IMG/VR virus record: IMGVR_UViG_3300036760_001400
Strand: one strand, 5' to 3'
Source of the DNA: an uncultured virus (IMG/VR IMGVR_UViG_3300036760_001400)
Lineage: Duplodnaviria; Heunggongvirae; Uroviricota; Caudoviricetes
DNA: 23,886 nucleotides
The translations under genes were made by a program, and so were the position numbers. The notes below the pieces were generated by a model. It did not search any database. It saw only the letters and a program-made list of their open reading frames with translations, and was not told the origin of the DNA. Shown here piece after piece: positions 9,512 to 23,886 of this stretch (position 1 is its first letter; each line of letters starts with the position of its first letter).

Positions 9512-9526
9512 AGAGAGGATCTTATA

Positions 9527-9748: not shown

Positions 9749-9774
9749 GTTTACGAGTCATTAAGGAGAGAGAC

Positions 9775-10260: not shown

Positions 10261-10366
10261 GTGTTTGAGGATGTAAAGTGGAGGGTAAGATACGAAAGAT
10301 GTAACTCCATGTGGCTGCGTAGGTTACGTGTTAGCTTGTTATCAAAAGGAACGAAAGGAGGTGCTC

Positions 10367-10702: not shown

Positions 10703-10737
10703 TTTTGAGGATTTAGAGAGATAAGGGGAAGGTTCCC

Positions 10738-11037
10738 ATGGACAAGTCCAAAGAGTACATTGAGCGGTCGGAAGTCATCCTGGGGAAGGTGAAAGAGCTG
10801 GTCAGTGAAGCATGGCCGGCTTTTGGTATCGAAACCATCATTGTTCCCTTTGGTCAGGGCGCCAGGGTCTGCCTGATTCGGGCAATTGGAAGGGGAGTTT
10901 ATCCGATCGCTACGGCCTGCGTGAACGAGTTTAAGTTCTCTACCAAGGACATCGTGCACGGTCTTTGGGGAGTTCTCAAACTTCGAGCGAAGGACGAGGT
11001 CCAGTACCTGAAGAAGGAGTCGAAGCTCAAGAAGTAG
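10738..11037 (+). CDS. Hypothetical protein (99 aa)
   Basis: ATG ORF with purine-rich RBS, co-oriented. Confidence 0.7.
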   Translation: MDKSKEYIERSEVILGKVKELVSEAWPAFGIETIIVPFGQGARVCLIRAIGRGVYPIATACVNEFKFSTKDIVHGLWGVLKLRAKDEVQYLKKESKLKK

Positions 11038-11097
11038 CATTGTAGTTTCTGTCCTGGTAGTCGTCTTGACACATCTGTAGGCCGCTTATCTCCTATA

Positions 11098-11517
11098 TCG
11101 CTCCTGGGGTGATAGCCGACTGTCATCCCCAGGCGAGTAGTGTGAGAGCAGATGTAGATAGGCAGGGTGGATGGAACGTTCACTCGATGCTGAAGTCTCC
11201 ACGGCTTCTGGCGTTCCTTAGGCCCCTGGTTAACACCAGGGGCAACGGAAGTTGCAGGACAGATTGGAGTTTATTCCCGTCTTGGCGTTCTTCTGGATCG
11301 ATGTACTCGATGACCTGACAAGACCAGCGTCATTAGATGCGTCGGCTTGAAGATCCGGGCGGAACGCTCGGGTGAAGAGCAGTTTCTGTTGTTCCTGATG
11401 TAGGTCCTAAGGATCCTGGCGTACGGCTGCGGCCTACCGCCAGGATCCACCGGACCATCGGCAAGACGGGCCTTGTGGGCCCTAGGGCAGGGATAGCCTG
11501 CCCTAGGGCCCTTTTTT
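11098..11517 (+). ncRNA. Candidate structured ncRNA (~400 nt) ending in an intrinsic terminator
   Basis: TTGACA at 11066-11071 upstream; stems at 11103-11133, 11165-11185, 11222-11243, 11242-11255 (GGAA loop), 11355-11371, 11403-11456; G-U pairs favour the plus strand; terminator 11477-11517; no RBS-led ORF. Confidence 0.55.
11477..11517 (+). terminator. Intrinsic terminator
   Basis: 15-bp stem gggccctagggcagg/cctgccctagggccc followed by tttttt. Confidence 0.8.
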
Positions 11518-11544
11518 ATTAACCAAAATCCCTGAAAGGTTTCC

Positions 11545-11709
11545 ATGAATTGTGATCACGTGAGAGAGGTGGTCAAGGGTAGTCGTTCCCTTTCCCAGCA
11601 TGAAGAAATGCCTTATCTCAGACATCTTCGTGCATGCGGAAAGTGCAGGGTCGAGATAGGTTCGGAAGAACGTAGAAAGGCCATCGAGACGGTAGTGCTC
11701 GAGGACTAG
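11545..11709 (+). CDS. Stand-alone zf-HC2 (ZAS anti-sigma-type) zinc-finger protein, 54 aa
   Basis: RBS gaaaggt; MNCDHVREVVKG...YLRHLRACGKCRVEI, i.e. N-terminal Cys plus HxxxCxxC; below the ORF-track cutoff. Confidence 0.7.
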   Translation: MNCDHVREVVKGSRSLSQHEEMPYLRHLRACGKCRVEIGSEERRKAIETVVLED

Positions 11710-11752
11710 ATAAACCCCAAACCGACCTACCAGGATCGGAGAAAGGAGATTC

Positions 11753-12475
11753 ATGCCGTTTATCACGCGGCCTGTCAGGATGAGCAGGGAAAAGGTTCCT
11801 CGGTTTGACAGGGCATCTGTCCCGTTTTCGGCTGAAAACGAGAAGTACACCCTCCATGTTCTTGAGAATCCACCTGCCTCGGTAACCGTTGTTTTCAAGC
11901 AGAAACTCAAGACTCAACGTGGGGGTTGGTCAAAGAAGCCACCTATGATCTTTAGGTACAAGATAAAGGTGCCCTGGTGCTACTTCTTGATGAGGCAAAA
12001 CAGGTCCGGAGCCATCACGGACACGTTTCTGTTCTTTGCGGAAGACAAGCTGAAGGATACTCGGGGACGTGTATTCTTGCCCCCGCTTCCAAACATCTAC
12101 CCTTCAGGCCATATCTGTAACGGGACGATCAAGGTCAATTTCGACGATCCTCCGCATATCAAGATCGCCGAAGCATTTAGAGCCTTCTGGTCTACCCCGT
12201 TCACGGAAGAGACGTGGCCTGAAGACCGTGGTCTCCTCCCGGCTTGCTTCAATGAGGAAGAGGGGCACGCATACGTTATCGAGTACGGGTACCTGAAGTA
12301 TGTCTTTTCGTACTGGGAGGTCCATGATGAGAACCATGAGGGGTGTTCCGGCAACATCTGGAGGTCATTCAGGCCCCGCTCAAAAGGCGGTCATTATGGA
12401 GGGTATTTGACCTGCCTTCAGCAGGTCATGGATTACGCGCTTGCGTTCAATGTCTTTGATCATGTCCAGACTTAA
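11753..12475 (+). CDS. Prokaryotic E2-like protein (Prok-E2_D / PRTRC protein B-like), copy 1
   Basis: LPPLPNIYPSGHICNG...AFWSTPF motif with the putative catalytic Cys; precedes JAB-E1-Ubl. Confidence 0.75.
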   Translation: MPFITRPVRMSREKVPRFDRASVPFSAENEKYTLHVLENPPASVTVVFKQKLKTQRGGWSKKPPMIFRYKIKVPWCYFLMRQNRSGAITDTFLFFAEDKLKDTRGRVFLPPLPNIYPSGHICNGTIKVNFDDPPHIKIAEAFRAFWSTPFTEETWPEDRGLLPACFNEEEGHAYVIEYGYLKYVFSYWEVHDENHEGCSGNIWRSFRPRSKGGHYGGYLTCLQQVMDYALAFNVFDHVQT

Positions 12476-12488
12476 TAGGAGGTGACTT

Positions 12489-13715
12489 TTGTCGGAAGAC
12501 AAGAACAAGGGCAAGGAGAAGGAGAAGCGTCCTGTCGAGTGCTCTATTGAGTACATTACGGGGCGGGAGGGCTACTACGTCAGGAAGAGTAACCCTCTCT
12601 TTACGGCCGTCGTCAGGGTTGGAACCAATCCTGAAATGGATCCGGTAACCGAGGAACTGACGTATCATGGGAAGAAGATTCCCGGGAACGTTTTCCGTCA
12701 GTGGCTTACCTTTGGAAGGGAGGTGGCTGCGAAGGCCAAGGGAAACTCGGAAGCCGGACTGATCCTCTTCTACCACCCCACAGAATGCACGTGGGGGGCA
12801 TTCCCACCGAAGCAGGATCTCTCGAGTGTGTCGGTTGACTTCACCGGAGTCACTGACTGCATCGGGAAGTTCCGCGAGGAGCACGGAAAAGAATGGCTCA
12901 TGGCAGGTACTCTGCATACCCACCCTGGGGATGCCGGCCCGTCTAGCATCGATGTGGATGATGAAAAGAAGCTCGATGGCATCCATCTCATCGTCCCTGA
13001 CTTTGGACGCGGAGCTGATCGAGGCATCAATTGCCATATCGTGTGCTCCGGAGAGCGTTTTGTGGTCAAGAAACCGGTCGGGTTCTTGATCGATTGGGAT
13101 TCAGAAGAGGGGAAAGCCTCTATTGAAGTTCCCGATTCGTGGCTTACCCAGGTGAAGTTTGGACGGCCTTCCTCGAAGGCCTTTGGTTATTCGGGTGAAG
13201 GGTACTCTTCCGGCTATTACGGCGGCCACAGTGGGTACGGTAACTCGGAGCATATCTTCAAGGGCCAGGGGCCCAAGATGCACAAGGCTACTGTAAACGG
13301 GGTTGATATAAACCTCGTTGGCGAGATCTTCGAGGTACGCGAGATCAAGGCCGTCCTTAAGCGTCTTGGGTTCACAAATGGTCAGAGGAAGTTCCTCCTG
13401 TCCAACTTCGAGGACGATATGGAGGATATTTTGATCGCCTTTGATAAGGCGCGTGAAGCGCTCAAGTTCTCGAAGGAGATCTGCGGTACGGTATCCGATC
13501 ACGAGCACGGCGAGATCGTTGAGAAGATCGCTGATGCAACCACTCAAATCCTCGAGAGCCTGGTGACCATTGCCGAGCGGATGCTTGAGAGTGCTGGCAA
13601 GGGAAGCGGGGTGGATGACGGAGTCAAGGAAGATGCGGGAGAGGAGGACATAAAAGAGGAGTCGCCTTCGATCGAGAAGTCTGTGGGTGAGTTTGATCAC
13701 AGGGATATTTCTTAG
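12489..13715 (+). CDS. JAB/MPN+ metallopeptidase (PRTRC protein A-like), copy 1, with C-terminal extension
   Basis: NSEAG Glu plus GTLHTHPGDAGPSSIDVDDE (HxH-x7-S-x2-D); TTG start with RBS aggaggt. Confidence 0.85.
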   Translation: MSEDKNKGKEKEKRPVECSIEYITGREGYYVRKSNPLFTAVVRVGTNPEMDPVTEELTYHGKKIPGNVFRQWLTFGREVAAKAKGNSEAGLILFYHPTECTWGAFPPKQDLSSVSVDFTGVTDCIGKFREEHGKEWLMAGTLHTHPGDAGPSSIDVDDEKKLDGIHLIVPDFGRGADRGINCHIVCSGERFVVKKPVGFLIDWDSEEGKASIEVPDSWLTQVKFGRPSSKAFGYSGEGYSSGYYGGHSGYGNSEHIFKGQGPKMHKATVNGVDINLVGEIFEVREIKAVLKRLGFTNGQRKFLLSNFEDDMEDILIAFDKAREALKFSKEICGTVSDHEHGEIVEKIADATTQILESLVTIAERMLESAGKGSGVDDGVKEDAGEEDIKEESPSIEKSVGEFDHRDIS

Positions 13716-13723
13716 GAGAAGCC

Positions 13724-14680
13724 GTGGAGGAAAATGCTGTCGTTGTCGCCATCGATCCGGTTACCGGGTTTCAGCCTGTACGGGTGATCCTGGTAGGTCT
13801 TGGAGGGATCGGCTCCAAGCTCGCGGATGAGCTTGCCCGGTACATGTCGTATACGTCGAAAGCTCCCAAGGAGCTCCTTCTCATCGATGGAGACGTGTAC
13901 TCCCAGGGGAACCTCGAACGCCAGAGCATCCTGGAAAGTGACGTGGGCAAGTCCAAGGCTCAGGCGTGGGCCGATGGCCTTGCGGCCGAGTTTCACAACC
14001 TGTCGGTTTCCGCCATGTGTGGCTACGTTGGAAAGGAGGGGACTAAGAAGGACAATGTCGTTCCAATCGACAAGATCTCTCTCGAAGGTTCGATTGTGAT
14101 CCTGGGTGTCGATAACCACAAGACCCGGAACCTGTTCTACCTCTGGTGCCTTGTACACGTGCCCAGTGTGTACCTGATTTCCGGAGGGAACAACAAGTTC
14201 GATGGGTCGGTCATCAACCTGTGGAAGAACAATGGAAACAGGTTGATCGACGGCTTCGCTTTTCATCCTGAGATTTTGAATCCTCAGGATAAGAATCCCG
14301 CGGATCTTTCATGCGCGGAGCTTGCGAAGATCGATGGTGGTACCCAGGTCATCTGGGCCAACGGAATGGCTGCAACAGTGATTGGCAACGAAGTCCACTC
14401 GATTGTGACGGGCGAGTGGGACAAGCTCCGCAAGAGGGGCGAAGTCTACTTCGATATCCTCGAGAACGTTTCTGTTTCCCGTCAGAGACTCGTTACCGGA
14501 AAGGAGGTCACGGAACCGCAGGTAACGAAGGTAGTGGAGAAACCGAAGGTTACGGTGAAGAGAGTGGTCAGGAAGACCAAGGGTAAGAAACCTGTCTCCG
14601 CAGAGCTCAAAGTCGTCGACGAGCGGGGATCGGAATCCAACGAAACCCTGCAGATCTATCCTGCCGGCTCCAGCCAGTAG
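13724..14680 (+). CDS. ThiF/E1-like ubiquitin-activating enzyme, copy 1
   Basis: LVGLGGIGS, LIDGD, NLERQ, DVGKSKA, GVDNHKTR, ISGGN, putative catalytic Cys in DLSCAELA; Lys-rich tail. Confidence 0.9.
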   Translation: MEENAVVVAIDPVTGFQPVRVILVGLGGIGSKLADELARYMSYTSKAPKELLLIDGDVYSQGNLERQSILESDVGKSKAQAWADGLAAEFHNLSVSAMCGYVGKEGTKKDNVVPIDKISLEGSIVILGVDNHKTRNLFYLWCLVHVPSVYLISGGNNKFDGSVINLWKNNGNRLIDGFAFHPEILNPQDKNPADLSCAELAKIDGGTQVIWANGMAATVIGNEVHSIVTGEWDKLRKRGEVYFDILENVSVSRQRLVTGKEVTEPQVTKVVEKPKVTVKRVVRKTKGKKPVSAELKVVDERGSESNETLQIYPAGSSQ

Positions 14681-14942: not shown

Positions 14943-15536
14943 TCGCGCCACGAGCATAAGAAATTATGCGCAACTACACGAAGGATGAGGGTGGGCCCCT
15001 CGGAGCCATTCTGCAGGGAAAGGCTTCAAGCCACCGTACGCGGCTTTGGTCAAAAGCCACGGTCGTGAGCAGTGCGGGAAAAGGCTTAGGAATAAGTCAG
15101 GCGAGGATCAAGAAGATGAGCGAAAGCAAACCATGGGTGACGCGTCGATAGCTCAAGATGACATCAGAACCAGGGTTGCCAGCTATCTCTGGGATGAGCT
15201 CGGAAGAAACCTGTTTACTGTCCGAGTGATGTCCGGCGTATACGTGGCATGAGCTTGATCTAGGCCTTCGTGTGGAACGTGGGAATCTGTCGCGTGGTGC
15301 CAAGAGAAAACCCTATAAGCGATCATTCGCAAAAGGGGAAAGTATCGATACATGCGACAGACTCGCATCATCTCATAGTAGCGTTGAAGCTCTTGTAATG
15401 AGAGTGGAGCCAAGGAGATGACTTAGTCAAGTGAAGGTACGGTTTCTATACTTGACTGGGACGAGCCGTATGAGTCGAGAGACTCGCGTACGGATCTGTG
15501 AGAGGATTGAGGTGAAATTCCTCTTTCCTACTCGGC
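14943..15536 (+). mobile_element. ORF-less group II intron (IIB, resembles bacterial class D), 594 nt
   Basis: DV gAGCcgtatgagtc-GAGA-gactc-gc-gtacggatc 15463-15496; DVI with bulged A15530 seven nt from the end; DI closing stem ccacg 14948-14952 / cgtgg 15278-15282; EBS1 ccagct 15179-15184 pairs with IBS1 agctgg 14937-14942; DII 15286-15361; DIII agtagcgttgaagctctt-gtaa-tgagagtggagc; DIV reduced to hairpin 15425-15457. Confidence 0.92.
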
Positions 15537-15607: not shown

Positions 15608-16591
15608 TCATTGAATTGTCCGTGGGTCCCGTGGGTTGAGAAACTCACGGGACCCACTCTTTGGAACGTATTTTAATGACATGTGTTTTTTCAAATTACA
15701 TGGACTACAGATCAAACGCAGGTTGCTAAGTTGGTTTATTTTTACGATCTCTTCCAACGTGTTGGCTATGTGCTGAGGAACAATGTGATCTACATGTGAG
15801 TTCTCAACGTTTAAGATAATACCATTGCAACTGGACTGTTCCAGGCACGGTTTGTTTAAGAATGAGCTTAGGTGTAAATAAGCCTCTTCTTTGGAATATC
15901 CAAGAAGCTTAAAGGTAGGCCCCCCTATCTTGCCAAGCTCTTTTCTTCTGAGTGCCCTCCAGATCGCTCCTCTTATTCTGCCTGGAAGTAACTGGACTTC
16001 TCTGAACTCTATTCTGAGCTCCTTCTTAATACATCCACACGACTTGGTCAGTTCCCGTAGCACGCTATGAAGGAAGACAGTCTTTCTATTCCCACAGTCG
16101 CATAGACATTCAACAAACCGCCTTTTTCCTACATGGACTTCCTTCTCGAGAGTCAGCCGGCCGAACTTTGTTCCTTGGACGAACTCCTTCTCAGTTGGCC
16201 TCCCGGAATTCTCTTTTCTAGTACACCCACATGAAGTCGTGTTCTTACGCTTAAGGGAGTTAAGGGTAGTCGTGATAAGCCTTCCGCAGTCACACTGGCA
16301 TTCGAAGGCTCTTCTTCCATACTTAGGATCCGCTTCTCTCAAGATCATGAGCTTTGAGAATTTCATTCCCTCGTGAATAAGATCACGTCTCTTAGCGGCT
16401 GCACTTTTCCATGAGCATCCGCACGACCTAGTCTTTCCCTCTCTAAGATCGCTTAAGCCAGATATGGTCGTATTTCCGCATTCACATAGACACTCGAACA
16501 TCCTTCTTCCTGGCGCTCTTTGGTCTACTTCCTTAACTATCTTCAGTTTTCCGAAAGGCTCTCCAGGAAATATCTCGAGTCTAGCAGGCAC
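15608..16591 (-). CDS. Free-standing HNH homing-endonuclease-like protein with three N-terminal Cys-rich repeats
   Basis: Three repeats of G.xF.+L...CxCxCG...SCGC and C-terminal HVDHIVP...NLRLICSPCNLKK; AT-richer than flanks, opposite strand. Confidence 0.88.
   Translation of the reverse strand: MPARLEIFPGEPFGKLKIVKEVDQRAPGRRMFECLCECGNTTISGLSDLREGKTRSCGCSWKSAAAKRRDLIHEGMKFSKLMILREADPKYGRRAFECQCDCGRLITTTLNSLKRKNTTSCGCTRKENSGRPTEKEFVQGTKFGRLTLEKEVHVGKRRFVECLCDCGNRKTVFLHSVLRELTKSCGCIKKELRIEFREVQLLPGRIRGAIWRALRRKELGKIGGPTFKLLGYSKEEAYLHLSSFLNKPCLEQSSCNGIILNVENSHVDHIVPQHIANTLEEIVKINQLSNLRLICSPCNLKKHMSLKYVPKSGSREFLNPRDPRTIQ
15622..15662 (+). terminator. Hairpin terminator of Ubl cassette 1, overlapping the HNH 3' end
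   Basis: 16-bp stem gtgggtcccgtgggtt-GAGA-aactcacgggacccac followed by tcttt. Confidence 0.6.
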
Positions 16592-16605
16592 GTTCTCATT
16601 CTTAT

Positions 16606-16725
16606 AAAAACAGCCCCAAGCCGGGTGCCCAGAGACCGCCTCGGTGAGAGACGGTCATCCTTCCCGACTCGGGGCTTTTAACGCTTTCTTAGACTTCCAT
16701 GGCGTCTGGGCAAGATCGTCATGGC
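16606..16725 (-). promoter_or_regulatory. Structured leader / attenuator or small RNA upstream of the HNH gene
   Basis: On the minus strand: 14-bp outer stem (16676-16663 / 16625-16612) and 9-bp inner stem (16656-16634) followed by gttttt; G-U pairs work only on the minus strand. Confidence 0.55.
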
Positions 16726-16731
16726 TAAGGA

Positions 16732-16760
16732 AGTATATCCTCTCTTGCATCCAATGTCAA
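16732..16760 (-). promoter_or_regulatory. Near-consensus sigma70 promoter for the HNH leader
   Basis: Minus strand TTGACA-17 bp-TATACT. Confidence 0.75.
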
Positions 16761-16801
16761 ATGTATTTCACAATGCAACTATAGAAAGGAGGCTCAGTTC
16801 C

Positions 16802-17119
16802 ATGGGCGATCCCCGCTGGTTCCATCGCAACACACTCCTTGAGATGTACCGCTCAAGACCAAGGCTATACTATGAATCGAAAGGAGGCGAAGTGTACGGA
16901 GCGCTTATCTCTCTAAAAGATGGGCAGAAGCACAAGGTCTCTTACGGATGCGATGTCGGCGTATCTCCGTACTGTTTTGTCCTTCGGTTCATCTTCGTAT
17001 GGATCTTTTCCATGGGAGAGGTTGCCGAGATCGAACTGTTCAAGAGCGGAAAGTACTTCGAGTCCTATAGTCCAAGGAAAGGCTGGTTCAACAAGTACAA
17101 GGAGGTGATACCGGATTAA
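16802..17119 (+). CDS. Hypothetical protein (105 aa)
   Basis: RBS aaaggagg before ATG 16802; the upstream in-frame start overlaps promoters. Confidence 0.7.
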   Translation: MGDPRWFHRNTLLEMYRSRPRLYYESKGGEVYGALISLKDGQKHKVSYGCDVGVSPYCFVLRFIFVWIFSMGEVAEIELFKSGKYFESYSPRKGWFNKYKEVIPD

Positions 17120-17141
17120 TAAAGATCGGTTCCTGTGTAGG

Positions 17142-17184
17142 GGGGCGCCGGCAGGCTAGGGCTTGCCAGCGCCCCTTTTTATTT
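17142..17184 (+). terminator. Intrinsic terminator with (C)TAGG loop
   Basis: ggggcgccggcaggc-tagg-gcttgccagcgcccc followed by tttttattt. Confidence 0.7.
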
Positions 17185-17206
17185 CAACCGTACTTTGAGG
17201 GCATTT

Positions 17207-17884
17207 ATGGACAAGAAGAAGACGGGCCATTCTCTCAGGATCCAAGGTGAAAATAAGCGCTTTTGGAACACGGCACTCGAGGCTTATCTGGATAGCGTGG
17301 ACAAGAGGAAAAGGTTCGGGTGGAGCGAGGAGAGCGGTGGAAGGAAGCTCTTCCGTTTCATGGGAGGTAAGCTTCCCGGGAGAATCGAAGACTGGGTTCC
17401 CTGCGATACCAGCGGTCGTCCGAGAGCCATCAAGAATGTGAAGAAGGCGGGCTTGGTCTTGAAAAGGAAACGCGTATCAAAAGTCACCCGCTACTGTCAG
17501 GCTCACGGAAAGTTCGGAGGCTACCAGTGGTCGGGTCATCGCAGGGCGTGCGTTTCCCCGGAACTGACAAAGGAGGAATTTCGGGGCAGCGCCAAGCCTC
17601 TCGATGTCAAGGTGGCTAAGGTGGCCAAGCCGAAGGACTCGAACGGTTATATGACGCTCGAGAGCGTTGCTGGCAAGCTGAATTCTCATGTCAGTGACCT
17701 GGAGTCTCAGAAGGCAGCCGTTGTCTCCAATATGGTTTCTCTCGAATCCGAGATAGACGACCTTTTGAAGAAGATCGAAGTTGCGAGTGCAGCAAGGAAA
17801 ACCCTTGATAACCAGCTCAATGAGCTGGAGGACAAGAAGAAGGATTTCCTCTGTCGTGTGGATCTGGTCTTAGAGGACAAATAG
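17207..17884 (+). CDS. Basic hypothetical protein with C-terminal coiled coil
   Basis: Lys/Arg-rich N-terminal half, CQAH...HRRAC, heptad-rich C-terminus. Confidence 0.75.
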   Translation: MDKKKTGHSLRIQGENKRFWNTALEAYLDSVDKRKRFGWSEESGGRKLFRFMGGKLPGRIEDWVPCDTSGRPRAIKNVKKAGLVLKRKRVSKVTRYCQAHGKFGGYQWSGHRRACVSPELTKEEFRGSAKPLDVKVAKVAKPKDSNGYMTLESVAGKLNSHVSDLESQKAAVVSNMVSLESEIDDLLKKIEVASAARKTLDNQLNELEDKKKDFLCRVDLVLEDK

Positions 17885-17909
17885 CCCTCTCTCCAAATCC
17901 CCAACACTG

Positions 17910-17941
17910 GAGTGGGTGCCCCCGCATGGGGGCACCCACTC
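17910..17941. repeat. 14-bp GC inverted repeat (terminator or processing hairpin)
   Basis: gagtgggtgccccc-gcat-gggggcacccactc. Confidence 0.65.
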
Positions 17942-17971
17942 TCTATTGGAAATATTTCTAGGAGGATTAGA

Positions 17972-18685
17972 ATGCCTTTTGTCACTCACGTAAAGGATCC
18001 GGATCGGATCCCGACCAACCGGAAAGCTGATTGGGGAGTTCCTTCCGGACGCGTACGTCATATCGAAGTCAAAGGAGATCATGCCATCTACGTCATCGAA
18101 GAGGAGCCTTCCGTTGTTCCCGTGATCATGAAAGCGGATGATGGGTATATCTCCCATGACGTATGGCTTCCGTGGAGATACTACGTGATCCGCGCTTACT
18201 CAAATTGCAGGGTCTCCGGAAGACAGCCTGGGTACATGTTCTTTGCAAACAAAAGGATCGAATCCTTGGATGACCGAGGCCTTCTGAAGAGGGCTGTTTT
18301 CCCGAATGTTTATGATGGCGGGGGCATCTGCCTTGGCTATACCGGACATGTCTGGGACAGGACCCCTGTTCGCGCGGCCTGGAGAGCGATCCGGCTTCTT
18401 TATTCGAAACCTGGAAACCAGTGGTTTACGGGAGACTATTTTCCAAGGTCTCTTATGATGGGAAAACTCCTTCCTAAAGAGTGCGACAGAACCCATCGGT
18501 ACGGTTGTACGTACGCTTGCTACTGGTCTATGGCTTCCAAGGAAGAAGTTCTGGAGGTCGCTTGGTTCACTGCACCGTACGTGAGCTTGAGTCACTTCCT
18601 GAGTAACGTGGAATGGGACTTCAATTCCATGAATGTGCTTTCGGAAAGCGAGTTCCAGAAAAGGTTGAGAGAAACCGTTCGGTAA
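17972..18685 (+). CDS. Prokaryotic E2-like protein (Prok-E2_D-like), copy 2, directly upstream of the RT
   Basis: RBS aggagg; MPFVT start like copy 1 (MPFIT); LPWRYY, MFFANKRI, FPNVYDGGGICLG. Confidence 0.72.
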   Translation: MPFVTHVKDPDRIPTNRKADWGVPSGRVRHIEVKGDHAIYVIEEEPSVVPVIMKADDGYISHDVWLPWRYYVIRAYSNCRVSGRQPGYMFFANKRIESLDDRGLLKRAVFPNVYDGGGICLGYTGHVWDRTPVRAAWRAIRLLYSKPGNQWFTGDYFPRSLMMGKLLPKECDRTHRYGCTYACYWSMASKEEVLEVAWFTAPYVSLSHFLSNVEWDFNSMNVLSESEFQKRLRETVR

Positions 18686-18695
18686 TTCCAGAAAG

Positions 18696-19622
18696 GTGGG
18701 CTGGTTGGATATTTCCCTATACAAGACGATCCGAATTCCGAAGAAGCGTGGAATCCGGGTCATCCATGCGCCATGCCCTGAGCTCAAGGAGAAGCAGCGG
18801 CAATATCTCCGGAACGAAGTCATGGGTCACTTGAGATGGCCACGGGGGATCACGGCTTTTCTTCCGGGCCGCTCCATTGTCGATGCCGCTCGTCCTCACA
18901 TCGGAAAGAAGTATCTCGTGGCAATCGATATCAAGGACTTCTTTCATCATGTGACTCCCTACCACATCCTCAGGGCTATGGAATTCGAGAAGTTCCTTCC
19001 AAGAGAAATAGAGACGCGGGCTGCGCCTTTGCCTGTAAACTGGAAAAACGCGGCTCCTCCGAATAGCCTCCTGCAGATCTCTTTTATCCCATCTCCGAAA
19101 GTTCCAGGGGAGTTCTGCCTTCCCCAAGGAAGCCCGCTTTCACCTTATCTGTCCCTCATGGCATCGAAAGCGTTCTACTTCAAGATTCTTTCGATGCTCA
19201 GGAACAAGAAGGTGAAGGCTGATCTTACCGTCTACGCTGACGGCATCTTCCTCTCATCCGATGAGAAGAGGATCATTCCCATCGGGCTTCATGGGGTTGA
19301 AAGGATCCTGGCCAGCGAGCGGTTCAGGCCAAACCGTCAGAAGTTCAGGGTCATGCGAAGTACTGGAGCTCAAAGGGTTTGTGGAATTACCGTCAATCGT
19401 AAGCTCTCCGTTCCAAAGGGAAAGCGCCGGGAGATCCGGGGAAGGGTCCATAACCTCTTTATGGACGCGGTCAACGGCAAAGAAATCGATGTCAATGAGT
19501 TCAGGTTCCTTCAGGGTTTCCTTTCCTTTGCACGGCAGATCGATCAGAACTGGACTTTTGGTTTCGAAAAGTCCATGGCTTACATTCGCCTGACTCTCCA
19601 AGCCAGACATAAAATCAAGTAG
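18696..19622 (+). CDS. Retron-type reverse transcriptase with degenerate active site (YADG); true start may be TTG 18705
   Basis: YKTIRIPKKRGIRVIHAP, AFLPGRSIVDAARPH (NAxxH-like region X), IDIKDFF, LPQGSPLSPYLS, YADGIFLS, NRQK, QRVCGITVN (VTG-like region Y); no maturase X or En domain. Confidence 0.88.
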   Translation: MGWLDISLYKTIRIPKKRGIRVIHAPCPELKEKQRQYLRNEVMGHLRWPRGITAFLPGRSIVDAARPHIGKKYLVAIDIKDFFHHVTPYHILRAMEFEKFLPREIETRAAPLPVNWKNAAPPNSLLQISFIPSPKVPGEFCLPQGSPLSPYLSLMASKAFYFKILSMLRNKKVKADLTVYADGIFLSSDEKRIIPIGLHGVERILASERFRPNRQKFRVMRSTGAQRVCGITVNRKLSVPKGKRREIRGRVHNLFMDAVNGKEIDVNEFRFLQGFLSFARQIDQNWTFGFEKSMAYIRLTLQARHKIK

Positions 19623-19629
19623 TACGGTC

Positions 19630-19774
19630 GGGGAGAGCCGGGTACGCATGATCTGGCTGTGCTGAAGGATGTTCCAGATCAGAAAGGGCGGAACGCCCTT
19701 CATATCCAATGTGCTTCTCCTTGTGGAGAGGCGCGCACTGTAGGGTGATGGACTATCGGTATCCGGCTCTCTCT
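19630..19774 (+). ncRNA. Retron msr/msd-like ncRNA downstream of the RT
   Basis: 16-bp inverted arms ggggagagccgggtac (19630-19645) / gtatccggctctctct (19759-19774, 3 G-U); unpaired G19646; two stem-loops (19649-19681, 19684-19700) and a third hairpin (19711-19734). Confidence 0.65.
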
Positions 19775-19805
19775 CTTCCGATTTCAAGTTCTTTTGGAGG
19801 CTTTC

Positions 19806-20681
19806 ATGAGCACTTCCCAGAATGCAGTCATCCTGTTTGACGGACGCGCCTATTCAGCAGAACTGATTGTTCATGCCTCGATGCCTGTCTCAGAAGCTCT
19901 TAAGGGCATGGACGAGATGGGCGAGACAAAGTTCACCTTCGTGCCTCATGGAGATATCTCCTGCGCGGGGTTCGCACGCTTCGAGGATCGTCGATTCTAT
20001 CTCATGTACTTCCCGCCCAAGCGCCGCCAGCTTATCTGGCGGAACAAGCATAACGACGAGCGCCGCCAGTTCGTCCTGTGGTGGCCGCATGTCTACCTTG
20101 GGATCTTCTTCCGGGGAGGATCGATTGAGGATGGTTACGCGATGGCTTCCAGGAAGAAACTGACATCGCTCCAGGAGAAGCTCTGCCGGCTGCCGCTCCC
20201 AAATCTCGGAAAGAAGTTCGGGCATATCTGCGAGGGGGCTAAGGGAATGTGGAATGTCATGGCCCGTCCCGAGGAGTCGGCTTACCAGTATTCCGACTAC
20301 TTCTTCAAGAGCGAATGGCTCAGCGACATCAATGATCACTGGTCGTTTCTCCCGAAGGATCTGTATCCCGCAGGATGGGACTTCTCGAAACAGATTCCGA
20401 GTGAGAATCAGTATGAAGACCTGAACCAGAAGATCCTTGGAGTCTGGGAAGCCATTTCAGAGACAGACCCGAGAGCTGTCGAGAGGATCCAGTGGCCTGA
20501 GCATTTTACGATCGATGACCTTGTCCAGGCGGAATGGAAGGGAAAAATGACGATCGATGGACAGAGCGGAATCACTCTGGAGCAGATTCAATCGATCCTC
20601 GGAGGCCAGACAGGAGCGGCTCCCGTAGCGGGCCTGACTGGCTTACAAGGCATCGTTACTTTCAATAATCAGAACGCTTAG
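19806..20681 (+). CDS. Prokaryotic E2-like protein (Prok-E2_D-like), copy 3
   Basis: RBS ggagg; PPKRR, WWPHVYL, LCRLPLPNLGKKFGHICEG...YFFKSEW. Confidence 0.72.
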   Translation: MSTSQNAVILFDGRAYSAELIVHASMPVSEALKGMDEMGETKFTFVPHGDISCAGFARFEDRRFYLMYFPPKRRQLIWRNKHNDERRQFVLWWPHVYLGIFFRGGSIEDGYAMASRKKLTSLQEKLCRLPLPNLGKKFGHICEGAKGMWNVMARPEESAYQYSDYFFKSEWLSDINDHWSFLPKDLYPAGWDFSKQIPSENQYEDLNQKILGVWEAISETDPRAVERIQWPEHFTIDDLVQAEWKGKMTIDGQSGITLEQIQSILGGQTGAAPVAGLTGLQGIVTFNNQNA

Positions 20682-20689
20682 GAGGAACC

Positions 20690-20995
20690 ATGAAGTTTCC
20701 GTCACCTCAGTACTTTGGAATTGGGGATGTGAAGAAAGCGGACCGTGATCTCGAATCCGCATTATTTTCGAAGATCTCGGGCCTTGGAGAGAGAGGCAGG
20801 TGGCCTCTCATTACGTCGGTTCTCGAAGCTCCGCAGCTCTTCAAGATCAAGAGTCCCATCCGCCAGGAGATCCTTCTTCTCGTTGGAAGGACCATGGAAA
20901 AGATCGGTTTCTCGGGATCCAAGAAGGACAAGCGTATCGGGTTTCAGCTTTGGAAATGGATGAAGGTTCAGGAACAAAGAGGAGGTCTTTTCTAA
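20690..20995 (+). CDS. Hypothetical protein (101 aa) within cassette 2
   Basis: RBS aggagga; its stop overlaps the JAB-2 start (TAATG). Confidence 0.75.
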   Translation: MKFPSPQYFGIGDVKKADRDLESALFSKISGLGERGRWPLITSVLEAPQLFKIKSPIRQEILLLVGRTMEKIGFSGSKKDKRIGFQLWKWMKVQEQRGGLF

Positions 20996-22641
20996 TGGCT
21001 AAGTACTTCATGACCCCGAAGGGAATCTTCAAGGAGCACCAGGACGATCTTTTCACCGGGATCCTGGAAGCCAAACCTCCGTTCTCATTTCACAAGGAGT
21101 ATGACATTTGCGAGACCGTGGACGATGAGATGGAGGAGAAGCTGTCGCTCAAGTTCCAGAGGATGCCGATCTCAGTCTTTCAGGAGGCTCTTGAATTCCT
21201 TCGCTGGTGTCGGCTGAAGCATCAGTCCGAAGGGTTCGTTGCCCATCGATATTTTGCGGAGACCGGGACCTGGAAGAACTATGTACCGTACCAGGCGACC
21301 TCGGGAACGGCCCTCTGCTATCACATGGAACTCGATTTATCCCAGTCCAGTCGAGTGGCTGCGGATACCCACTCTCATCCTCCAAAGGATGAAAAGGGAA
21401 CGGGTGCAAGCTTTCATTCATCGACGGACGGTCTCGATGAAAGGAAGAACGACGGTCTTTTCATCGTCGTGACCGGGTGGACGCCCATGACCTGCGATCC
21501 TGATATCGTCGGATGTGTCGAGGGAAAGAAGTTCCACCTGAAGCCCGAGCAGTTCTTTGACCTCTCGATCTACAATCCGAAGCCCACGTTTCCAGAGGAA
21601 TGGAAGTCCAGAGTCTCCTCATACCCCTGCACCCATTGTGAACGGAAGCGCGATCTCGATCGCCTTTCGAAGGAGATCTCGGATACCTCCAGAGTGTACG
21701 AGGACGAGAAGAAGTATCGCCTGATTCCAAAAAAGGTTCTCGATCTCCTCAGGAGCGCTCCCAATATCGAGCTTCCGGGGAAGGCGATTATGGAGAGCCA
21801 GAAGGCATACGAACGGCTTATGAGCCCGAACTGGCCTCGCATGTTCCGGTGCGACAATCATGGGTGCGGAAAGCTGCAGTCATTTCTTAATTGCACCGAC
21901 TGCAAGCGTGGGGTCGCGACTACCAAGGTATTCGAGATCATTTCCGACATGATGGATGAAATGTATCTCTTTACCGAAAGAAAGGAGGATGTGGCAACGG
22001 CAACCCTGATCGTCGAGGAATCCCTCAAGAAAGAGCCTGTTCTTCCGGATAAAACGGCAGCGATTACCCCTCCTCCGCATTCACTTCCGGTGAGCGCTTC
22101 TACTGGGGATCTTGGACGTAAGGATGAAAGATCCTCAAGTATTGTTGTCGTATCCACGGACAGGAAATGTGGAAACGATTGCATCTACAATGCAATTCCT
22201 CATGAACACGCTGAGTCTAAATCAACCCTGGAAAAAGCGTGGAGGGCCATGAATACCGAGCCTTCTGCCGCGAAGGTCCGCAGTGTCGTTGGGTGCTCCA
22301 GTAGAGCTTGTGTTGAGAGCAAGCATATCTGGGCGATCTGCGAGCTTCGTAAAAGGTACTTTGAGCTCGTGGTAAAGTGTCCTTCCGATTTCTGCAAGGA
22401 AGGCGGCCATACTTGGGATAGATGTGAGGTGAAAGCGTACCTCATTTCCCTTGTGAAGAGCGGCATCGAGTTCTCTGTTCCAGAAAAGAAGTCTTCGATA
22501 TTAGAGCCTGTCGTGATCGGAGACACGTGTGTCTGCTTGCCGGCATGCAGTATGAGGGAGATTCCCCACAGACACGAGCTCTCGGATGACGCGAAGGCGA
22601 AGGCTTCGAGTGAAATGAGCATGTATGGAGATGGAATGTGA
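20995..22641 (+). CDS. JAB/MPN+ metallopeptidase, copy 2, with a long Cys/His-rich C-terminal region
   Basis: QSEG Glu, ADTHSHP...FHSSTDGLDE; translationally coupled ATG at 20995; multiple CxxC/CxxxC/H clusters. Confidence 0.85.
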   Translation: MAKYFMTPKGIFKEHQDDLFTGILEAKPPFSFHKEYDICETVDDEMEEKLSLKFQRMPISVFQEALEFLRWCRLKHQSEGFVAHRYFAETGTWKNYVPYQATSGTALCYHMELDLSQSSRVAADTHSHPPKDEKGTGASFHSSTDGLDERKNDGLFIVVTGWTPMTCDPDIVGCVEGKKFHLKPEQFFDLSIYNPKPTFPEEWKSRVSSYPCTHCERKRDLDRLSKEISDTSRVYEDEKKYRLIPKKVLDLLRSAPNIELPGKAIMESQKAYERLMSPNWPRMFRCDNHGCGKLQSFLNCTDCKRGVATTKVFEIISDMMDEMYLFTERKEDVATATLIVEESLKKEPVLPDKTAAITPPPHSLPVSASTGDLGRKDERSSSIVVVSTDRKCGNDCIYNAIPHEHAESKSTLEKAWRAMNTEPSAAKVRSVVGCSSRACVESKHIWAICELRKRYFELVVKCPSDFCKEGGHTWDRCEVKAYLISLVKSGIEFSVPEKKSSILEPVVIGDTCVCLPACSMREIPHRHELSDDAKAKASSEMSMYGDGM

Positions 22642-23382
22642 TTGGGAGGAAACGTGGCAGAGCGACCGCCGTTTGATTCGATCGTGGTTGTCGGCCTTGG
22701 GGGGATCTTCTCGAGGCTGTGGCTCAACCTTGGAGACCTGGCTGAATTCACGGAAGCTTCTCCAAAAAGGATCCTCCTGATCGATGGGGATGATGTCGAG
22801 GAAAAGAACGTCTCCCGACAGGGATTTATCCGGACAGACCTGGGGAAAAAGAAGTCGCAGGTCTATGAAGACCGGATGCGCCGTCGATATCCGGCGCTCA
22901 CCATAGCATCCAGGGGTGATTTCCTGACCCCGAAGAACATGAGGGATTTCATTCCGGATCGTTCCATCGTCTTGTCTGCTGTCGATAACAACAAGACGCG
23001 CCTGCAGATCTCAGCGCACGCTCAAGCCCTCAAGGATGTGGTCGTCATTTCCGGAGGCAATGAGATCTGGGATGGAACCGTGTATCTCTATGTCCGTGAA
23101 AGCGGGGTTTCGAAGGTGATGCCGCTTGAAGAGAAGCATGAGAGCGTGAAGAACCCGAAGGACAAGAATCCGGGCGAGATGAGCTGTGAGGAACGTCTTT
23201 CCCAGAAAGGAGGGGAGCAGATTCTGGTTACGAATGCCATGGTTGCGGTTCATATGGCCGCGATGTTCCATGACGTTCTTCGTTCATGGACCGAATGGAA
23301 AGGGAAGGAGGTGAAGAAGACGGGGGAAGTCAGTTTCGATGTTCGGGATTACTGCTCGCTGGGCTATGTACGTAATCCCTAG
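22642..23382 (+). CDS. ThiF/E1-like ubiquitin-activating enzyme, copy 2
   Basis: VVGLGGIFS, LIDGD, NVSRQ, DLGKKKS, AVDNNKTR, ISGGN, NPKDKNPGEMSCEE; clear paralog of copy 1. Confidence 0.9.
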   Translation: MGGNVAERPPFDSIVVVGLGGIFSRLWLNLGDLAEFTEASPKRILLIDGDDVEEKNVSRQGFIRTDLGKKKSQVYEDRMRRRYPALTIASRGDFLTPKNMRDFIPDRSIVLSAVDNNKTRLQISAHAQALKDVVVISGGNEIWDGTVYLYVRESGVSKVMPLEEKHESVKNPKDKNPGEMSCEERLSQKGGEQILVTNAMVAVHMAAMFHDVLRSWTEWKGKEVKKTGEVSFDVRDYCSLGYVRNP

Positions 23383-23455
23383 GAATCCGTGACCTTCGGG
23401 CCTGTCGTCCGAAGGTGGTGCAGTATTGTTGACCCCTATTTTCAAAGGAGCTGCT

Positions 23456-23710
23456 ATGTCGTCACAGGTCAGGTGCGGCCCTCGCTGTGTTCCCCAGAGC
23501 TATCAGTGGATCGGGAAGCAGGTTCAGGAGCTCCGTAGGTTTCTCGCGGGAGACCTTCAGGTTCCGGACGGCGCTCCCGCCACGGTCTCGCGTGACGGCG
23601 GAATGACGTCAGTCTCCGTGCGGGAGGACTACAAGGTCCAGCACGGCGATCTCCTGGAGTTCATCCGTCCGCCGGGAACCAAGGGCGTTCGGATCCTGGT
23701 CCGTTGCTAG
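23456..23710 (+). CDS. Ubiquitin-like protein Ubl-2 (PRTRC protein C-like GTKG motif) with a C-terminal extension
   Basis: RBS aaaggag; ...GDLLEFIRPPGTKG-VRILVRC*; follows E1. Confidence 0.8.
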   Translation: MSSQVRCGPRCVPQSYQWIGKQVQELRRFLAGDLQVPDGAPATVSRDGGMTSVSVREDYKVQHGDLLEFIRPPGTKGVRILVRC

Positions 23711-23744
23711 GAGAGAAGCCTAGCCTGGAAGTGAAGTAAGGGTC

Positions 23745-23774
23745 GGGTGGGTGGGCCGGGAGGCCCACCCACCC
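23745..23774 (+). terminator. Hairpin after Ubl-2
   Basis: 13-bp stem gggtgggtgggcc-GGGA-ggcccacccaccc. Confidence 0.55.
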
Positions 23775-23886
23775 ACTTCAACTGGAAGGAAGAGTCTATA
23801 GGACCTTGAGATGGGAGAGGAAGGAGGTTCCCCAAACCTCTCCCATCTCACAGGCTTCCGCGTGTCCAAAGGTACGGTATCCAACA

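Follow-up and report, generated by a model that had tools for sequence, protein, structure and literature searches.

The window analysed here, a stretch of 23,886 nucleotides that forms part of a 148-kb contig of an uncultured virus, carries a ubiquitin-like conjugation gene set at positions 17972-23710, inside which sit a reverse transcriptase (RT) gene and a folded RNA (Table 1). After the RT gene (18696-19622) there is a 183-nt gap, and the genes beyond it encode an E2-like protein, a small protein, a JAMM metallopeptidase, an E1 and, lastly, a small protein with a Gly end. The hairpin upstream of the unit is a possible boundary of the preceding transcript, and the two hairpins after the last gene likely mark its end. 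A promoter-like site at 17946-17973 scored 9 of 12, such sites being present in a number expected by chance. A preliminary description of this DNA had seen no evident T-tailed terminator between 17972 and the gene that it called 'Ubl-2'; a scan of the + strand agreed with this, giving a single weak site in the unit before 20995 (18379-18394, 5-bp stem, within the E2 copy 2 ORF), with terminator-like sites at chance (9 found against 7.1 +/- 2.3 expected).

Table 1. Features of the unit and of the paralogous cassette (window coordinates)
Feature	Position	Strand	Evidence or remark
Paralogous cassette 1	11753..14680	+	Prok-E2_D, JAB-like, ThiF (Pfam 2.1e-7, 0.0068, 1.6e-17); no RT of its own
GC-rich hairpin	17910..17941	+	14-bp perfect arms, 4-nt loop, no T-tail; directly upstream of unit
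E2-like copy 2 (Prok-E2_D-like, conserved PN...C motif)	17972..18685	+	BLASTP to 11753-12475 (E2 copy 1), E 3e-9
Retron-type RT, own lineage	18696..19622	+	Pfam RVT_1 1.3e-16; motif C = YADG
msr/msd-like ncRNA	19626..19778	+	Structure prediction, shuffles
a1 / a2	19630-19645 / 19759-19774	+	16 bp, 3 of them G-U
Unpaired G19646	directly after a1	+	Fold
SL1	19649-19681	+	Stem-loop
SL2	19684-19700	+	Stem-loop, GAA loop
msd-like part	19701-19758	+	Contains hairpin 19711-19734
E2-like copy 3 (distinct subfamily, invariant Cys142)	19806..20681	+	hhalign vs E2_D-like set 98.2%, E 5.6e-14
Small conserved protein of unknown fold ('Ubl-2' of the preliminary description)	20690..20995	+	No Pfam match; position-conserved orthologues
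JAMM/JAB metallopeptidase, Cys-rich C-terminal half	20995..22641	+	E, HxH, SxxD columns invariant in 6 sequences
E1-like adenylating enzyme (ThiF family)	22642..23382	+	Pfam ThiF 1.7e-21
Candidate Ubl	23456..23710	+	Small protein, ends G-x-K-G plus 7-residue tail
Two GC-rich hairpins	23740..23850	+	After last gene; by eye, no tool score

Identity of the reverse transcriptase

Retrons consist of an RT, an msr-msd ncRNA and an effector, and types I-XIII are distinguished in Mestre 2020 (PMC7736814). The ORF of the window RT begins at GTG 18696, 10 nt past the stop of E2 copy 2, or at TTG 18705, a possible start because the database copy has 305 aa. In PADLOC, 36 RT families matched it with E values down to 2.4e-43, the best being RT_XIII at 146.9 bits, whereas typed retron RTs score 300-700 bits. 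The NCBIfam model retron_St85 reached 131 bits, under its cut-off of 235, and all of the PDB matches (12/12) were retron RTs. A FastTree phylogeny of 120 rows placed the window RT in a separate clade with a support of 100, outside all PADLOC-typed retrons. The window RT is thus a member of the retron RT group and, by the PADLOC and NCBIfam scores and the tree, a member of none of the 13 described types. The RT had been called retron-like in the preliminary description, and this stands at the level of the retron superfamily, although not of any typed clade. What had been missed is that motif C lacks its second Asp. Among 27 clade members motif C reads YADG in 19, YADN in six and YADD in two, the second Asp being absent in 25, and in the tree the YADD rows are basal and YADG derived. 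In addition, NAXXH reads AARPH and VTG reads VCG in the window RT, and TG follows I/V in only one of the 27. The loss of the second Asp puts both polymerase activity and msDNA synthesis in doubt. A search of INPHARED phages gave nine records, none from the window RT clade and none with an RT identity above 30%, and in the literature 'YADG' appeared only as the name of an E. coli gene.

The RT might instead belong to another retroelement, either as maturase of a group II intron that has no ORF (14987-15536) or as part of a diversity-generating retroelement. That intron RNA, which lacks an RT of its own, does lie 3.2 kb upstream, and group II intron was the only Rfam family to reach gathering score in the window. 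However, the NCBIfam model group_II_RT_mat matched the RT weakly (E 1.7e-4, against 4e-38 for the retron models), and the PDB matches given above likewise point to retrons. No template/variable direct repeats were found in 16600-23886, where the only repeats were two chance-like 27-nt pairs of 70% identity, and a diversity-generating retroelement was rejected. We consider it extremely unlikely that the RT serves either kind of element.

Structured RNA downstream of the RT gene

E2 copy 2 had been claimed to end 10 bp before the RT, and the ORF at 17972-18685 and the GTG at 18696 confirm this spacing, which is too short to hold an msr-msd ahead of the RT. Only 10-19 nt are present upstream of the RT, and the RNA lies downstream in the window and in L001, L039, L002 and L036. 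In the window, the gap between the RT and E2 copy 3 (19623-19805) folds at -79.6 kcal/mol (z -4.03), with 0 of 200 shuffles folding as well, and the + strand is better by 18 kcal/mol than the - strand (-61.4 kcal/mol). A long-range helix as good as the 16-bp a1/a2 was obtained in none of 500 dinucleotide shuffles. The fold, the a1/a2 arms, G19646 and the stem-loops agree with the msr/msd-like RNA that had been proposed for this gap; the a1/a2 inverted repeats and the G at the end of a1 adjoin the RT as in retron ncRNA, branching being predicted at most. In Rfam, nothing came near gathering score in the gap, and four sediment or freshwater DNA runs gave no variants over the RNA, just identical low-depth pieces of the contig.

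Structured gaps follow the RT in five of six loci. The RNA of L001 has the element order of the window with changed helix sequences: in both, a1 and the G are followed by a spacer of 3 nt, SL1 with 8 bp, SL2 with 7-8 bp and a GAA loop, a hairpin and finally a2. Reading by hand, three a1/a2 pairs and five of the eight SL1 pairs were changed on both sides between the two; the MAFFT/RNAalifold alignments (window with L001, L036 with L002) were non-structural, so that this comparison of few sequences carries no covariation statistic. For L001, 43 of 500 shuffles matched the 10-bp core of the helix on its own, and both strands fold equally well. L039 encodes a canonical retron RT (NAKLH, YADD, VTG), followed by a 403-nt gap (z -6.0) and an E2_D-like ORF, and this gap holds a perfect 15-bp a1/a2 with a G after a1 (0/300 shuffles). 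The post-RT gaps of L002 and L036 are of 0.8-1.0 kb with several candidate counterparts of the window RNA. In L116 the gap between the RT and E2 copy 3 is 1 nt, and no comparable RNA structure was seen elsewhere in that locus; the RNA is thus not obligatory between these two genes.

The state of motif C bears on what this RNA could be used for. If the RT of the window subclade no longer polymerised, it could be an RNA-binding subunit, with the RNA as a scaffold or cis-regulator and without msDNA. The replacement of the second Asp of YXDD by Gly, which is derived in the tree, or by Asn, as described above, is consistent with such a loss, as is the location of a2 and a small downstream hairpin immediately ahead of the ribosome site of E2 copy 3. 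In contrast, all 27 RT sequences retain the Asp of motif A, the first Asp of motif C and the LPQG-PLSP block unchanged, which fits a site still selected for nucleotide chemistry; moreover, some viral RNA polymerases function with GDN or ADN in motif C, and an a1/G/a2 layout has no obvious use in a plain scaffold. An RT that only binds RNA, with no msDNA made, appears to us quite unlikely.

The ubiquitin-like conjugation proteins

The own Pfam match of E2 copy 2 to Prok-E2_D (0.025) is under threshold, and its Cys is conserved in the alignment; L001 (two) and L116/L122 (two) have orthologues ahead of the RT, and the distance to the RT, 10 nt in the window, is 13 nt for L001 and 14 nt for L116. 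The most likely start of E2 copy 3 is ATG 19806, preceded by GGAGG, the listed ORF starting at TTG 19794; orthologues of this copy are present in L001, L002 (two), L036 and L116. Its description as an E2 is favoured by hhalign, by a Cys that is invariant in 24 of 24 sequences and by weak fold matches, and has no Pfam match of its own behind it. The AF2 model (pLDDT 78.7) gave E2/UBC proteins as the top VIA-align rows at weak Z scores of 4.9-4.0, with BubCD (9eav) and CdnG-E2 (8hsb) among the weak matches, and Foldseek against the PDB gave no row at E <= 0.001.

The start of the JAMM peptidase, ATG 20995, was read from the translation, and the best NCBIfam match of the E1 is PRTRC_ThiF (9.1e-15, under its cut-off). 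The protein of 20690-20995 has orthologues at the equivalent place in four loci, at 20-24% identity. It had been named as the Ubl of the unit; a conserved C-terminal Gly-Gly is absent from five orthologues, and it is probably something other than a Ubl. Judged by its sequence, the protein of 23456-23710 is probably the better candidate, five orthologues ending in G-x-K-G with tails of 0-7 residues and the C-terminal Gly being invariant in all five. Its AF2 model (pLDDT 68.7) had a ubiquitin-like domain as the best Foldseek row at a non-significant E of 0.11 and ThiS in the PDB at a weak 0.57; no PDB row was at E <= 0.001 and there was no Pfam match.

The set is akin to PRTRC (operon type 6d), for which Iyer 2006 (PMC1779556) describes Ubl, JAB and proteins resembling E1 and E2 on mobile elements. 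Common to both are the ThiF-type E1, an E2 of the Prok-E2_D type whose Cys is conserved, a JAB that carries the JAMM motif and a small protein ending in Gly, and the loci L021 and L012 match PRTRC_A, PRTRC_B and PRTRC_ThiF. Unlike PRTRC, however, all scores are under the curated cut-offs, there are two to three E2-like paralogues per unit, the JAB has a long Cys-rich tail, and the window unit additionally contains an embedded RT and structured RNA. The ParB family is absent from the Pfam matches of the 23 ORFs scanned in the window, itself only part of the contig. 'Reverse transcriptase' does not occur in the accessible text of Iyer 2006, and among the PRTRC papers listed none is functional by its title.

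Type II CBASS combines a CD-NTase with a Cap2 E1-E2 and a Cap3 JAB, Cap2 and Cap3 being reported to prime and reset the nucleotidyltransferase, and Bil and Bub are bacterial ubiquitination-like defence systems. The window shares with all three the joining of a nucleotide polymerase or immune module to E1/E2/JAB enzymes, and the PADLOC E1-E2 and BilD models match the window E1s weakly, the E1-E2 match being partial and on the ThiF domains. In contrast to type II CBASS, PADLOC detected no CD-NTase, the E1 and E2 are separate proteins and not a fused Cap2, and the part of the polymerase is taken by an RT that has its own RNA.

Recurrence of the unit and its possible function

All loci compared are metagenomic and few in number. 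The order RT, E2 copy 3, JAMM and E1 recurs by tblastn in all four RT-clade loci with downstream flank, namely L001, L002, L036 and L116, whose RTs are 58%, 38%, 42% and 47% identical to that of the window. The Gly-ended protein was matched by tblastn in L001, L002 and L116 and identified in L036 by position and alignment, and the small protein of 20690-20995 by tblastn only in L001 and in the other loci by position and alignment. No other window protein is common to these loci, except for one weak glycosyltransferase match in L116. Six further contigs of matching size (5111, 6066, 4215, 18026, 6485 and 6163) were on the match lists of both the RT and E2 copy 3, an indirect count, and an IMG/VR scan with the E2 copy 3 alignment returned only the two RT-bearing contigs. 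The recurrent synteny of E2, RT and RNA expected from the preliminary description was therefore found in the four relatives and in L039, and homologues of the window RT clade were not seen in unrelated contexts lacking E2 genes. Other gene orders occur in two phage records: L021 has Prok-E2_D, JAB (PRTRC_A 4.7e-14), ThiF (PRTRC_ThiF 7.6e-41), a 196-aa ORF and then the RT, and L012 has the Prok-E2_D, JAB and ThiF families 2.4 kb downstream of the RT. By comparison, 0 of 48 loci of tree rows typed XIII, XI, III-A, I-C, XII, X and Ec107 had an E1, E2 or JAB match. Terminase_6N was not found in the L001 or L002 records, nor Phage_capsid in any of five. Most likely, phages or other mobile elements carry these loci.

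Alternatively, the RT and its RNA might be an independent retron that is carried within or next to the Ubl cassettes of related mobile elements and has no functional tie to them. Retron modules are modular according to Mestre 2020, descent alone can preserve gene order in related elements, and L116 retains the RT and cassette without the RNA. Nevertheless, the loci do not share flanks beyond the unit, the link of RT and Ubl cassette recurs with different gene orders and at 30-33% as well as 52-60% G+C, and the intergenic gaps measure 1-19 nt; furthermore, the RT, E2 copy 3 and E1 agree in their ranks of identity to the window, L001 and L116 preceding L002 and L036. We hold such a retron without a functional link to be very unlikely.

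In 18 of 22 loci of a neighbouring RT clade, the RT has only a ThiF gene immediately before it, without an E2 or JAB match. The ThiF-RT gaps of this sister clade showed no consensus structure, a long-range helix above shuffles being found in one of 15 (L025), with z of 0 to -4.2 on mononucleotide shuffles. This clade hints that the RT is constantly paired with an E1-like enzyme and not with an E2 effector, which would suit a coupling in the reverse direction, the E1/E2/JAB enzymes controlling the polymerase by attaching or removing the Ubl as in type II CBASS. Precedent for a nucleotide polymerase beside such enzymes is an operon with E2+E1, JAB and a nucleotidyltransferase of the pol-beta kind, given next to the Ubl/JAB/E1/E2 type in Iyer 2006. 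However, the unit conserves a separate Gly-ended small protein, and the window RT ends in Lys and not Gly, so that the RT itself is not the adenylated species. The reversed coupling is, in our view, unlikely.

Compared with known retrons, the window has an RT of the retron superfamily, an RNA with a1/a2, an unpaired G, stem-loops and a hairpin, and E2/JAB/E1 genes co-conserved with the RT as putative effectors. It differs in that the RNA follows the RT instead of preceding it, that motif C is YADG/YADN in the clade and NAXXH and VTG are altered in the window, both being kept in L039, and that the partner is a multi-gene E2/JAB/E1/Ubl set. If it acts as an effector, such a set would be new among retrons. 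The main text of Mestre 2020 and the 2026 SPIRE survey (PMC13712802) make no mention of ubiquitin, ThiF, Rossmann, MoeB or JAB; co-mentions and reviews in the wider literature, by title and abstract, gave no link of retrons to E1, E2 or Ubl genes, in keeping with the earlier statement that no retron type has an E2/Ubl effector. Nothing related was found that joins Prok-E2 with reverse transcriptase, or RT with ThiF, phage and retron.

The first interpretation, in which the RT and its RNA gate an E2-like effector or Ubl conjugation, is thus partly supported. We favour the reading, which we regard as evenly balanced, that 17972-23710 is one operon-like unit in which a retron-type RT and its downstream RNA are joined to a PRTRC-like Ubl conjugation set. 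As the combination recurs in related, probably phage-borne, DNA, the reverse-transcriptase and ubiquitin-like machineries may work together. In such a unit the JAMM peptidase would remove the tail of the small Gly-ended protein so that the C-terminal Gly is exposed, the E1 would adenylate this Gly, and the Ubl would be transferred onto an E2-like protein, at its conserved Cys, and from there onto targets. The RT would bind the RNA stem-loops and, if it still polymerises, could prime on the 2'-OH of G19646 and copy roughly 19701-19758 into a short msDNA. The RT-RNA ribonucleoprotein could then act as sensor or regulator, determining the timing or the targets of conjugation, a role modelled on the control of effectors by RT-msDNA in known retrons. 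More broadly, and only as a tentative and rather doubtful proposal, a branch of the retron RT tree found mainly in large phages would have E1-type enzymes as standing partners, either ThiF alone or full PRTRC-like sets, the window clade having lost the second Asp and moved the RNA behind the RT within one phage-borne Ubl-RT machine. If true, one machine of an undescribed kind would combine Ubl conjugation with reverse transcription or with RT-RNA sensing, and in it, for example, a Ubl attached to or released from the RT-nucleic acid complex could serve as a switch.

Retrons are classified by their effectors, and to our knowledge none of the 13 types uses protein conjugation; likewise, we know of no function for the PRTRC-kind E1/E2/JAB sets of bacteria and phages. 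The conserved physical link gives the retron and PRTRC-like modules each a testable partner, and raises the question of whether an enzyme that makes or binds nucleic acid controls ubiquitin-like tagging, or the reverse, outside CBASS. The passage from YADD through YADN to YADG within one clade offers a natural series on the altered polymerase site of a retron RT and, if the carriers are phages, the unit would represent a phage-side use of a retron-like module.

Gene layout and identity of the reverse transcriptase

The window carries a retron-like RT/RNA module inside a ubiquitin-like conjugation operon, and the arrangement recurs in related loci. Two cassettes of ubiquitin-like conjugation genes lie on its + strand, and the RT is contiguous with the second of the two E2/JAB/E1 cassettes only. 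As the preliminary description had it, the RT lies directly 3' of E2 copy 2, the stop of that gene being followed after 10 nt (GTG) or 19 nt (TTG) by the RT start, and the absence of a T-tailed terminator was borne out by a terminator scan that returned no credible site within the RT-containing unit. In the database, the copy of this RT lies on a 147,886-base contig.

Features of the window around the two conjugation cassettes
Feature	Position	Strand	Match or remark
Prok-E2_D, cassette 1	11753-12475	+	Pfam 2.1e-7
Prok-JAB, cassette 1	12489-13715	+	Pfam 0.0068, below threshold
ThiF, cassette 1	13724-14680	+	Pfam 1.6e-17
ORF-less group II intron RNA	14987-15536	+	Rfam matches 14987-15102 and 15461-15536
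HNH endonuclease gene, just beyond the intron	15608-16591	-	phrog_374, 2.1e-40
Perfect 14-bp hairpin	17910-17941	+	5' of the RT-containing unit
E2-like copy 2	17972-18685	+	
Retron-type RT	18696-19622	+	
Gap 3' of RT	19623-19805	+	183 nt
E2-like copy 3	19806-20681	+	
101-aa protein ('Ubl-2')	20690-20995	+	
JAMM protein, 548 aa	20995-22641	+	ATG at 20995
E1, ThiF-family	22642-23382	+	Pfam ThiF 1.7e-21
84-aa protein, candidate Ubl	23456-23710	+	
Two GC-rich hairpins, 3' of the 84-aa protein gene	likely end of unit		by-eye reading

The two E2/JAB/E1 cassettes (11753-14680 and 19806-23710) are paralogous and lie inside one 12-kb stretch; no Ubl candidate for cassette 1 was identified in the window. 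The group II intron RNA (Rfam 95.6 bits for D1-D4, 52.3 bits for domain V/VI) stands directly 3' of the cassette-1 E1, and two ORFs of no known family lie between the HNH gene and the 17910-17941 hairpin.

The window RT matched 36 retron RT models of PADLOC, best RT_XIII (2.4e-43, 146.9 bits), while NCBIfam gave retron_St85 at 4.3e-38, below cut-off, and group II maturases at 1.7e-4. All 12 of its 12 PDB matches were retron RTs. With the maturase match on one side and these retron matches on the other, we consider it extremely improbable that the RT is part of another retroelement. PADLOC labels were given to 93 other RT loci; typed RTs reached 300-700 bits to their own type, and those of L001, L002 and L036, three metagenomic loci with related RTs, were without a family at 1e-70. 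A FastTree analysis of 120 rows (27 clade proteins and 93 locus RTs; 118 distinct) placed every one of the 30 E2-linked rows in a single clade with support 100 and a stem of 0.76, and no row typed XIII, XI, III-A, I-C, XII, X or Ec107 fell inside it; the tree is a quick one with long branches, so that deeper placement is unsure. The RT is of retron type, as first proposed, and stands outside all typed retron rows of this tree.

Motif C of the 27 clade members is YADG in 19 (the window RT among them), YADN in 6 and YADD in two basal ones, so that the second Asp of YXDD (window RT residue 180) is replaced stepwise within one clade. Across the clade alignment the Asp of motif A, the first Asp of motif C and LPQG-PLSP do not vary, and the RT of locus L039 has canonical motifs (NAKLH, YADD, VTG). 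Replacement of the second Asp would suit an RT serving as an RNA-binding subunit devoid of polymerase activity; with the two other Asp residues kept, we regard this as unlikely.

A candidate ncRNA 3' of the RT

The gap between the RT and E2 copy 3 was predicted to fold at -79.6 kcal/mol (z -4.03), and the msr/msd-like RNA described there earlier was recovered: a closing helix of 16 pairs, three of them G-U (19630-19645 with 19759-19774), encloses G19646, which is unpaired, a pair of stem-loops and a 10-bp hairpin. An equal long-range helix arose in 0/500 dinucleotide shuffles. Predicted folding favours the + strand over the - strand by 18 kcal/mol, as expected if G-U pairs count, and no Rfam family matched the gap.

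Loci with flanking DNA in or near the RT clade
Locus	RT identity to window	Source	Gap after RT	Fold of gap	Hairpin-rich modules
L001	58%	IMG/VR contig	365 nt	z -7.2	
L116	47%	contig binned with Nitrospiraceae MAG	1 nt	no fold	
L036	42%		788 nt	z -20.4	959-1187; 1460-1654
L002	38%	IMG/VR contig	1041 nt	no z-score	7185-7468; 7475-7718; 7758-7961
L039	31%		403 nt	z -6.0	

The L001 gap repeats the window plan element for element, with a1, the first arm of the closing helix (3+4+10 pairs), followed by G and a 3-nt spacer, then two 8-bp stem-loops, the second of which has the window's GAA loop, and lastly a hairpin of 18+ pairs and the closing arm a2. Between the two, three a1/a2 pairs and 5/8 pairs of the first stem-loop are changed on both sides with pairing kept; this comparison was read by hand, MAFFT-based RNAalifold alignments of the gaps having come out non-structural. 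L039 has a perfect 15-bp a1/a2 (1501-1515 with 1857-1871) followed by G1516, matched by 0/300 shuffles, and directly 3' of this RNA an E2_D-like ORF (own-HMM E 2.3e-7) runs off the contig. The gaps of L036 and L002 each hold several candidate hairpin-rich modules, among which a counterpart of the window's RNA may lie. In both, one module has an identical 9-10-nt flanking inverted repeat whose first arm is followed by a G, and the L036 gap includes a perfect 72-bp hairpin; the extra modules could be additional ncRNAs or inserted small elements. The RNA 3' of the RT is missing at one locus, L116.

The system resembles retrons in RT group, RNA plan and co-conserved partner genes. It differs from them in that the window RT lies outside every described type, NAXXH/VTG and YXDD are altered, and the RNA is not 5' of the RT. 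The words ubiquitin, ThiF, Rossmann, MoeB and JAB do not occur in the main texts of Mestre 2020 (PMC7736814) and the 2026 SPIRE survey (PMC13712802), whose supplements could list such clusters, and no literature linking retrons with E1/E2/Ubl genes was found by title or abstract.

Recurrence with conjugation genes and their products

A protein search returned 26 close RT relatives besides the window's own copy, at 36-75% identity and all metagenomic, and five loci in or near the clade had flanking DNA. The order RT, E2 copy 3, JAMM, E1 was kept in L001, L002, L036 and L116 (tblastn with window proteins); a search for recurrent synteny had been proposed in the preliminary description. The Gly-ended 84-aa protein gave tblastn matches in L001, L002 and L116, its L036 copy being recognised from position and alignment; the 101-aa protein matched in L001 only, its copies elsewhere being assigned from position (20-24% identity). 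Directly 5' of the RT, L001 and L116/L122 have one or two orthologues of E2 copy 2, whereas L002 differs in having two copy-3-like genes 3' of the RT. L122 (G001:C96), another contig from the MAG of L116 and apparently a strain variant, overlaps L116 1-707 at 94% identity, extends it upstream and shows two tandem E2-like genes 5' of the RT.

RT, E2 copy 3 and E1 give one and the same ranking of the loci by identity to the window (L001 > L116 > L002 and L036), and apart from a weak glycosyltransferase match no other window proteins are common to these loci. Six further contigs, paired by equal size, are common to the RT and E2-copy-3 match lists, an indirect sign that they carry both genes, and when IMG/VR was scanned with the alignment of E2 copy 3, only two contigs came up, both RT-bearing. 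Mere neighbourhood of RT/RNA and cassette would accommodate the loss of the RNA at L116; set against the lack of other shared window proteins and the agreeing identity ranks it appears quite unlikely, and we think it probable that RT/RNA and cassette form one functional system.

E2 copy 3 had no Pfam match, and a profile of 24 members aligned with an E2_D-like profile at 98.2% probability (E 5.6e-14), Cys142 and the preceding P-N pair being invariant or nearly so. Its AF2 model (pLDDT 78.7) retrieved nothing by Foldseek at E <= 0.001, and the leading rows of a wide VIA-align search were E2/UBC enzymes, weak at Z 4.9-4.0. Six sequences, including the 548-aa protein and its cassette-1 paralogue, have the E, HxH and SxxD columns of the JAMM motif without variation. 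The C-terminal half of the 548-aa protein (21700-22641) is Cys/His-rich with several CxxC-like pairs, partly kept in L001, L116 and L002, and may, judging from sequence, form zinc-binding modules.

The 101-aa protein had been named Ubl-2 but is probably not the Ubl, no terminal Gly being conserved across five orthologues. It had no Pfam match, and the 84-aa protein is favoured instead. In five loci the latter ends in G-x-K-G followed by 0-7 residues, in sequence terms the pattern of a JAB-trimmed Ubl precursor. Its AF2 model is fair only (pLDDT 68.7); the best Foldseek row was a ubiquitin-like domain at a weak E of 0.11. A ThiS chain appeared at E 0.57, and an Atlas lead at 0.84 had ThiS on 10% of cluster members. 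The 84-aa protein is likely the Ubl of the unit. Compared with the PRTRC / type 6d operons of Iyer 2006 (PMC1779556), the unit has E1, E2 and JAB in common, the 84-aa protein with its G-x-K-G end and weak Ubl-fold match being a candidate counterpart of their Ubl, and no ParB was found in the window.

Proposed function and wider association with E1 enzymes

We propose that the genes would be expressed as one hairpin-bounded transcription unit, in which the JAMM protein would trim the small Gly-ended protein, E1 would adenylate its terminal Gly, and the Cys residues of the E2-like proteins would carry it to targets. The RT would bind the RNA and, if still active, make a short msDNA from G19646, and the RT-RNA complex would sense or regulate conjugation. 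This whole reading, an RT/RNA complex regulating Ubl conjugation, has in our judgement an even chance, and the direction of control is held less firmly than the existence of one system. In type II CBASS, Ubl machinery is reported to act on the nucleotidyltransferase, and by analogy the conjugation proteins could instead control the RT; we rate this reverse control as rather unlikely.

E1, E2 and JAB profiles built from these loci were run over the ORFs of 115 loci. The E1 profile matched 26 loci, 22 outside the profile-building set; the E2 profile matched eight (outside the set L012, L039 and L122) and the JAB profile six (outside it L012), with matches in 0/48 typed rows. L021 and L012, both from complete records of large phages with 30-33% G+C, adjoin the E2-linked clade on the tree and have Prok-E2_D, Prok-JAB and ThiF next to a YADD RT (952-7144 and 5971-12563, respectively), with NCBIfam matches to PRTRC_A (4.7e-14, 1.2e-12), PRTRC_B (1e-5) and PRTRC_ThiF (7.6e-41, 1.8e-21). 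In L021 a 381-nt stretch 5' of the operon also folds strongly (z -9.1), and the RT is followed by a SpoVG-like gene.

A second untyped RT clade, mostly on IMG/VR contigs, has a ThiF gene of ~223 aa (Pfam 1.6e-25, 6.9e-22) 5' of the RT in 18/22 loci (L033 at 4775-6900, L006, L011, L017, L018, L020, L022, L024, L025, L028, L030-L032, L035, L093, L095, L112 and L118). It lies within ~0.4 kb of the RT in 15 of the 18 and 1.4-1.6 kb away in L017 and L118; three of the four ThiF-less loci are without upstream DNA. No E2 or JAB was found in this clade by profile search, and its gaps held no clear retron-like RNA. The L021 record (188 kb) has terminal repeats; it and those of L012 (207 kb) and L033 (133 kb) carry completeness ratings of 99-100%, and in all three Terminase_6N scored above cut-off. 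No such match was found in the fragments L001 (23% complete) and L002 (65%). The carriers of the RT/RNA with conjugation operon are probably phages or other mobile elements. Because of the matches in L021, L012 and the ThiF-RT clade, and of the phage records with terminase, the link of this RT branch to E1-type enzymes exceeds the window's own clade and is, at least in part, phage-borne.
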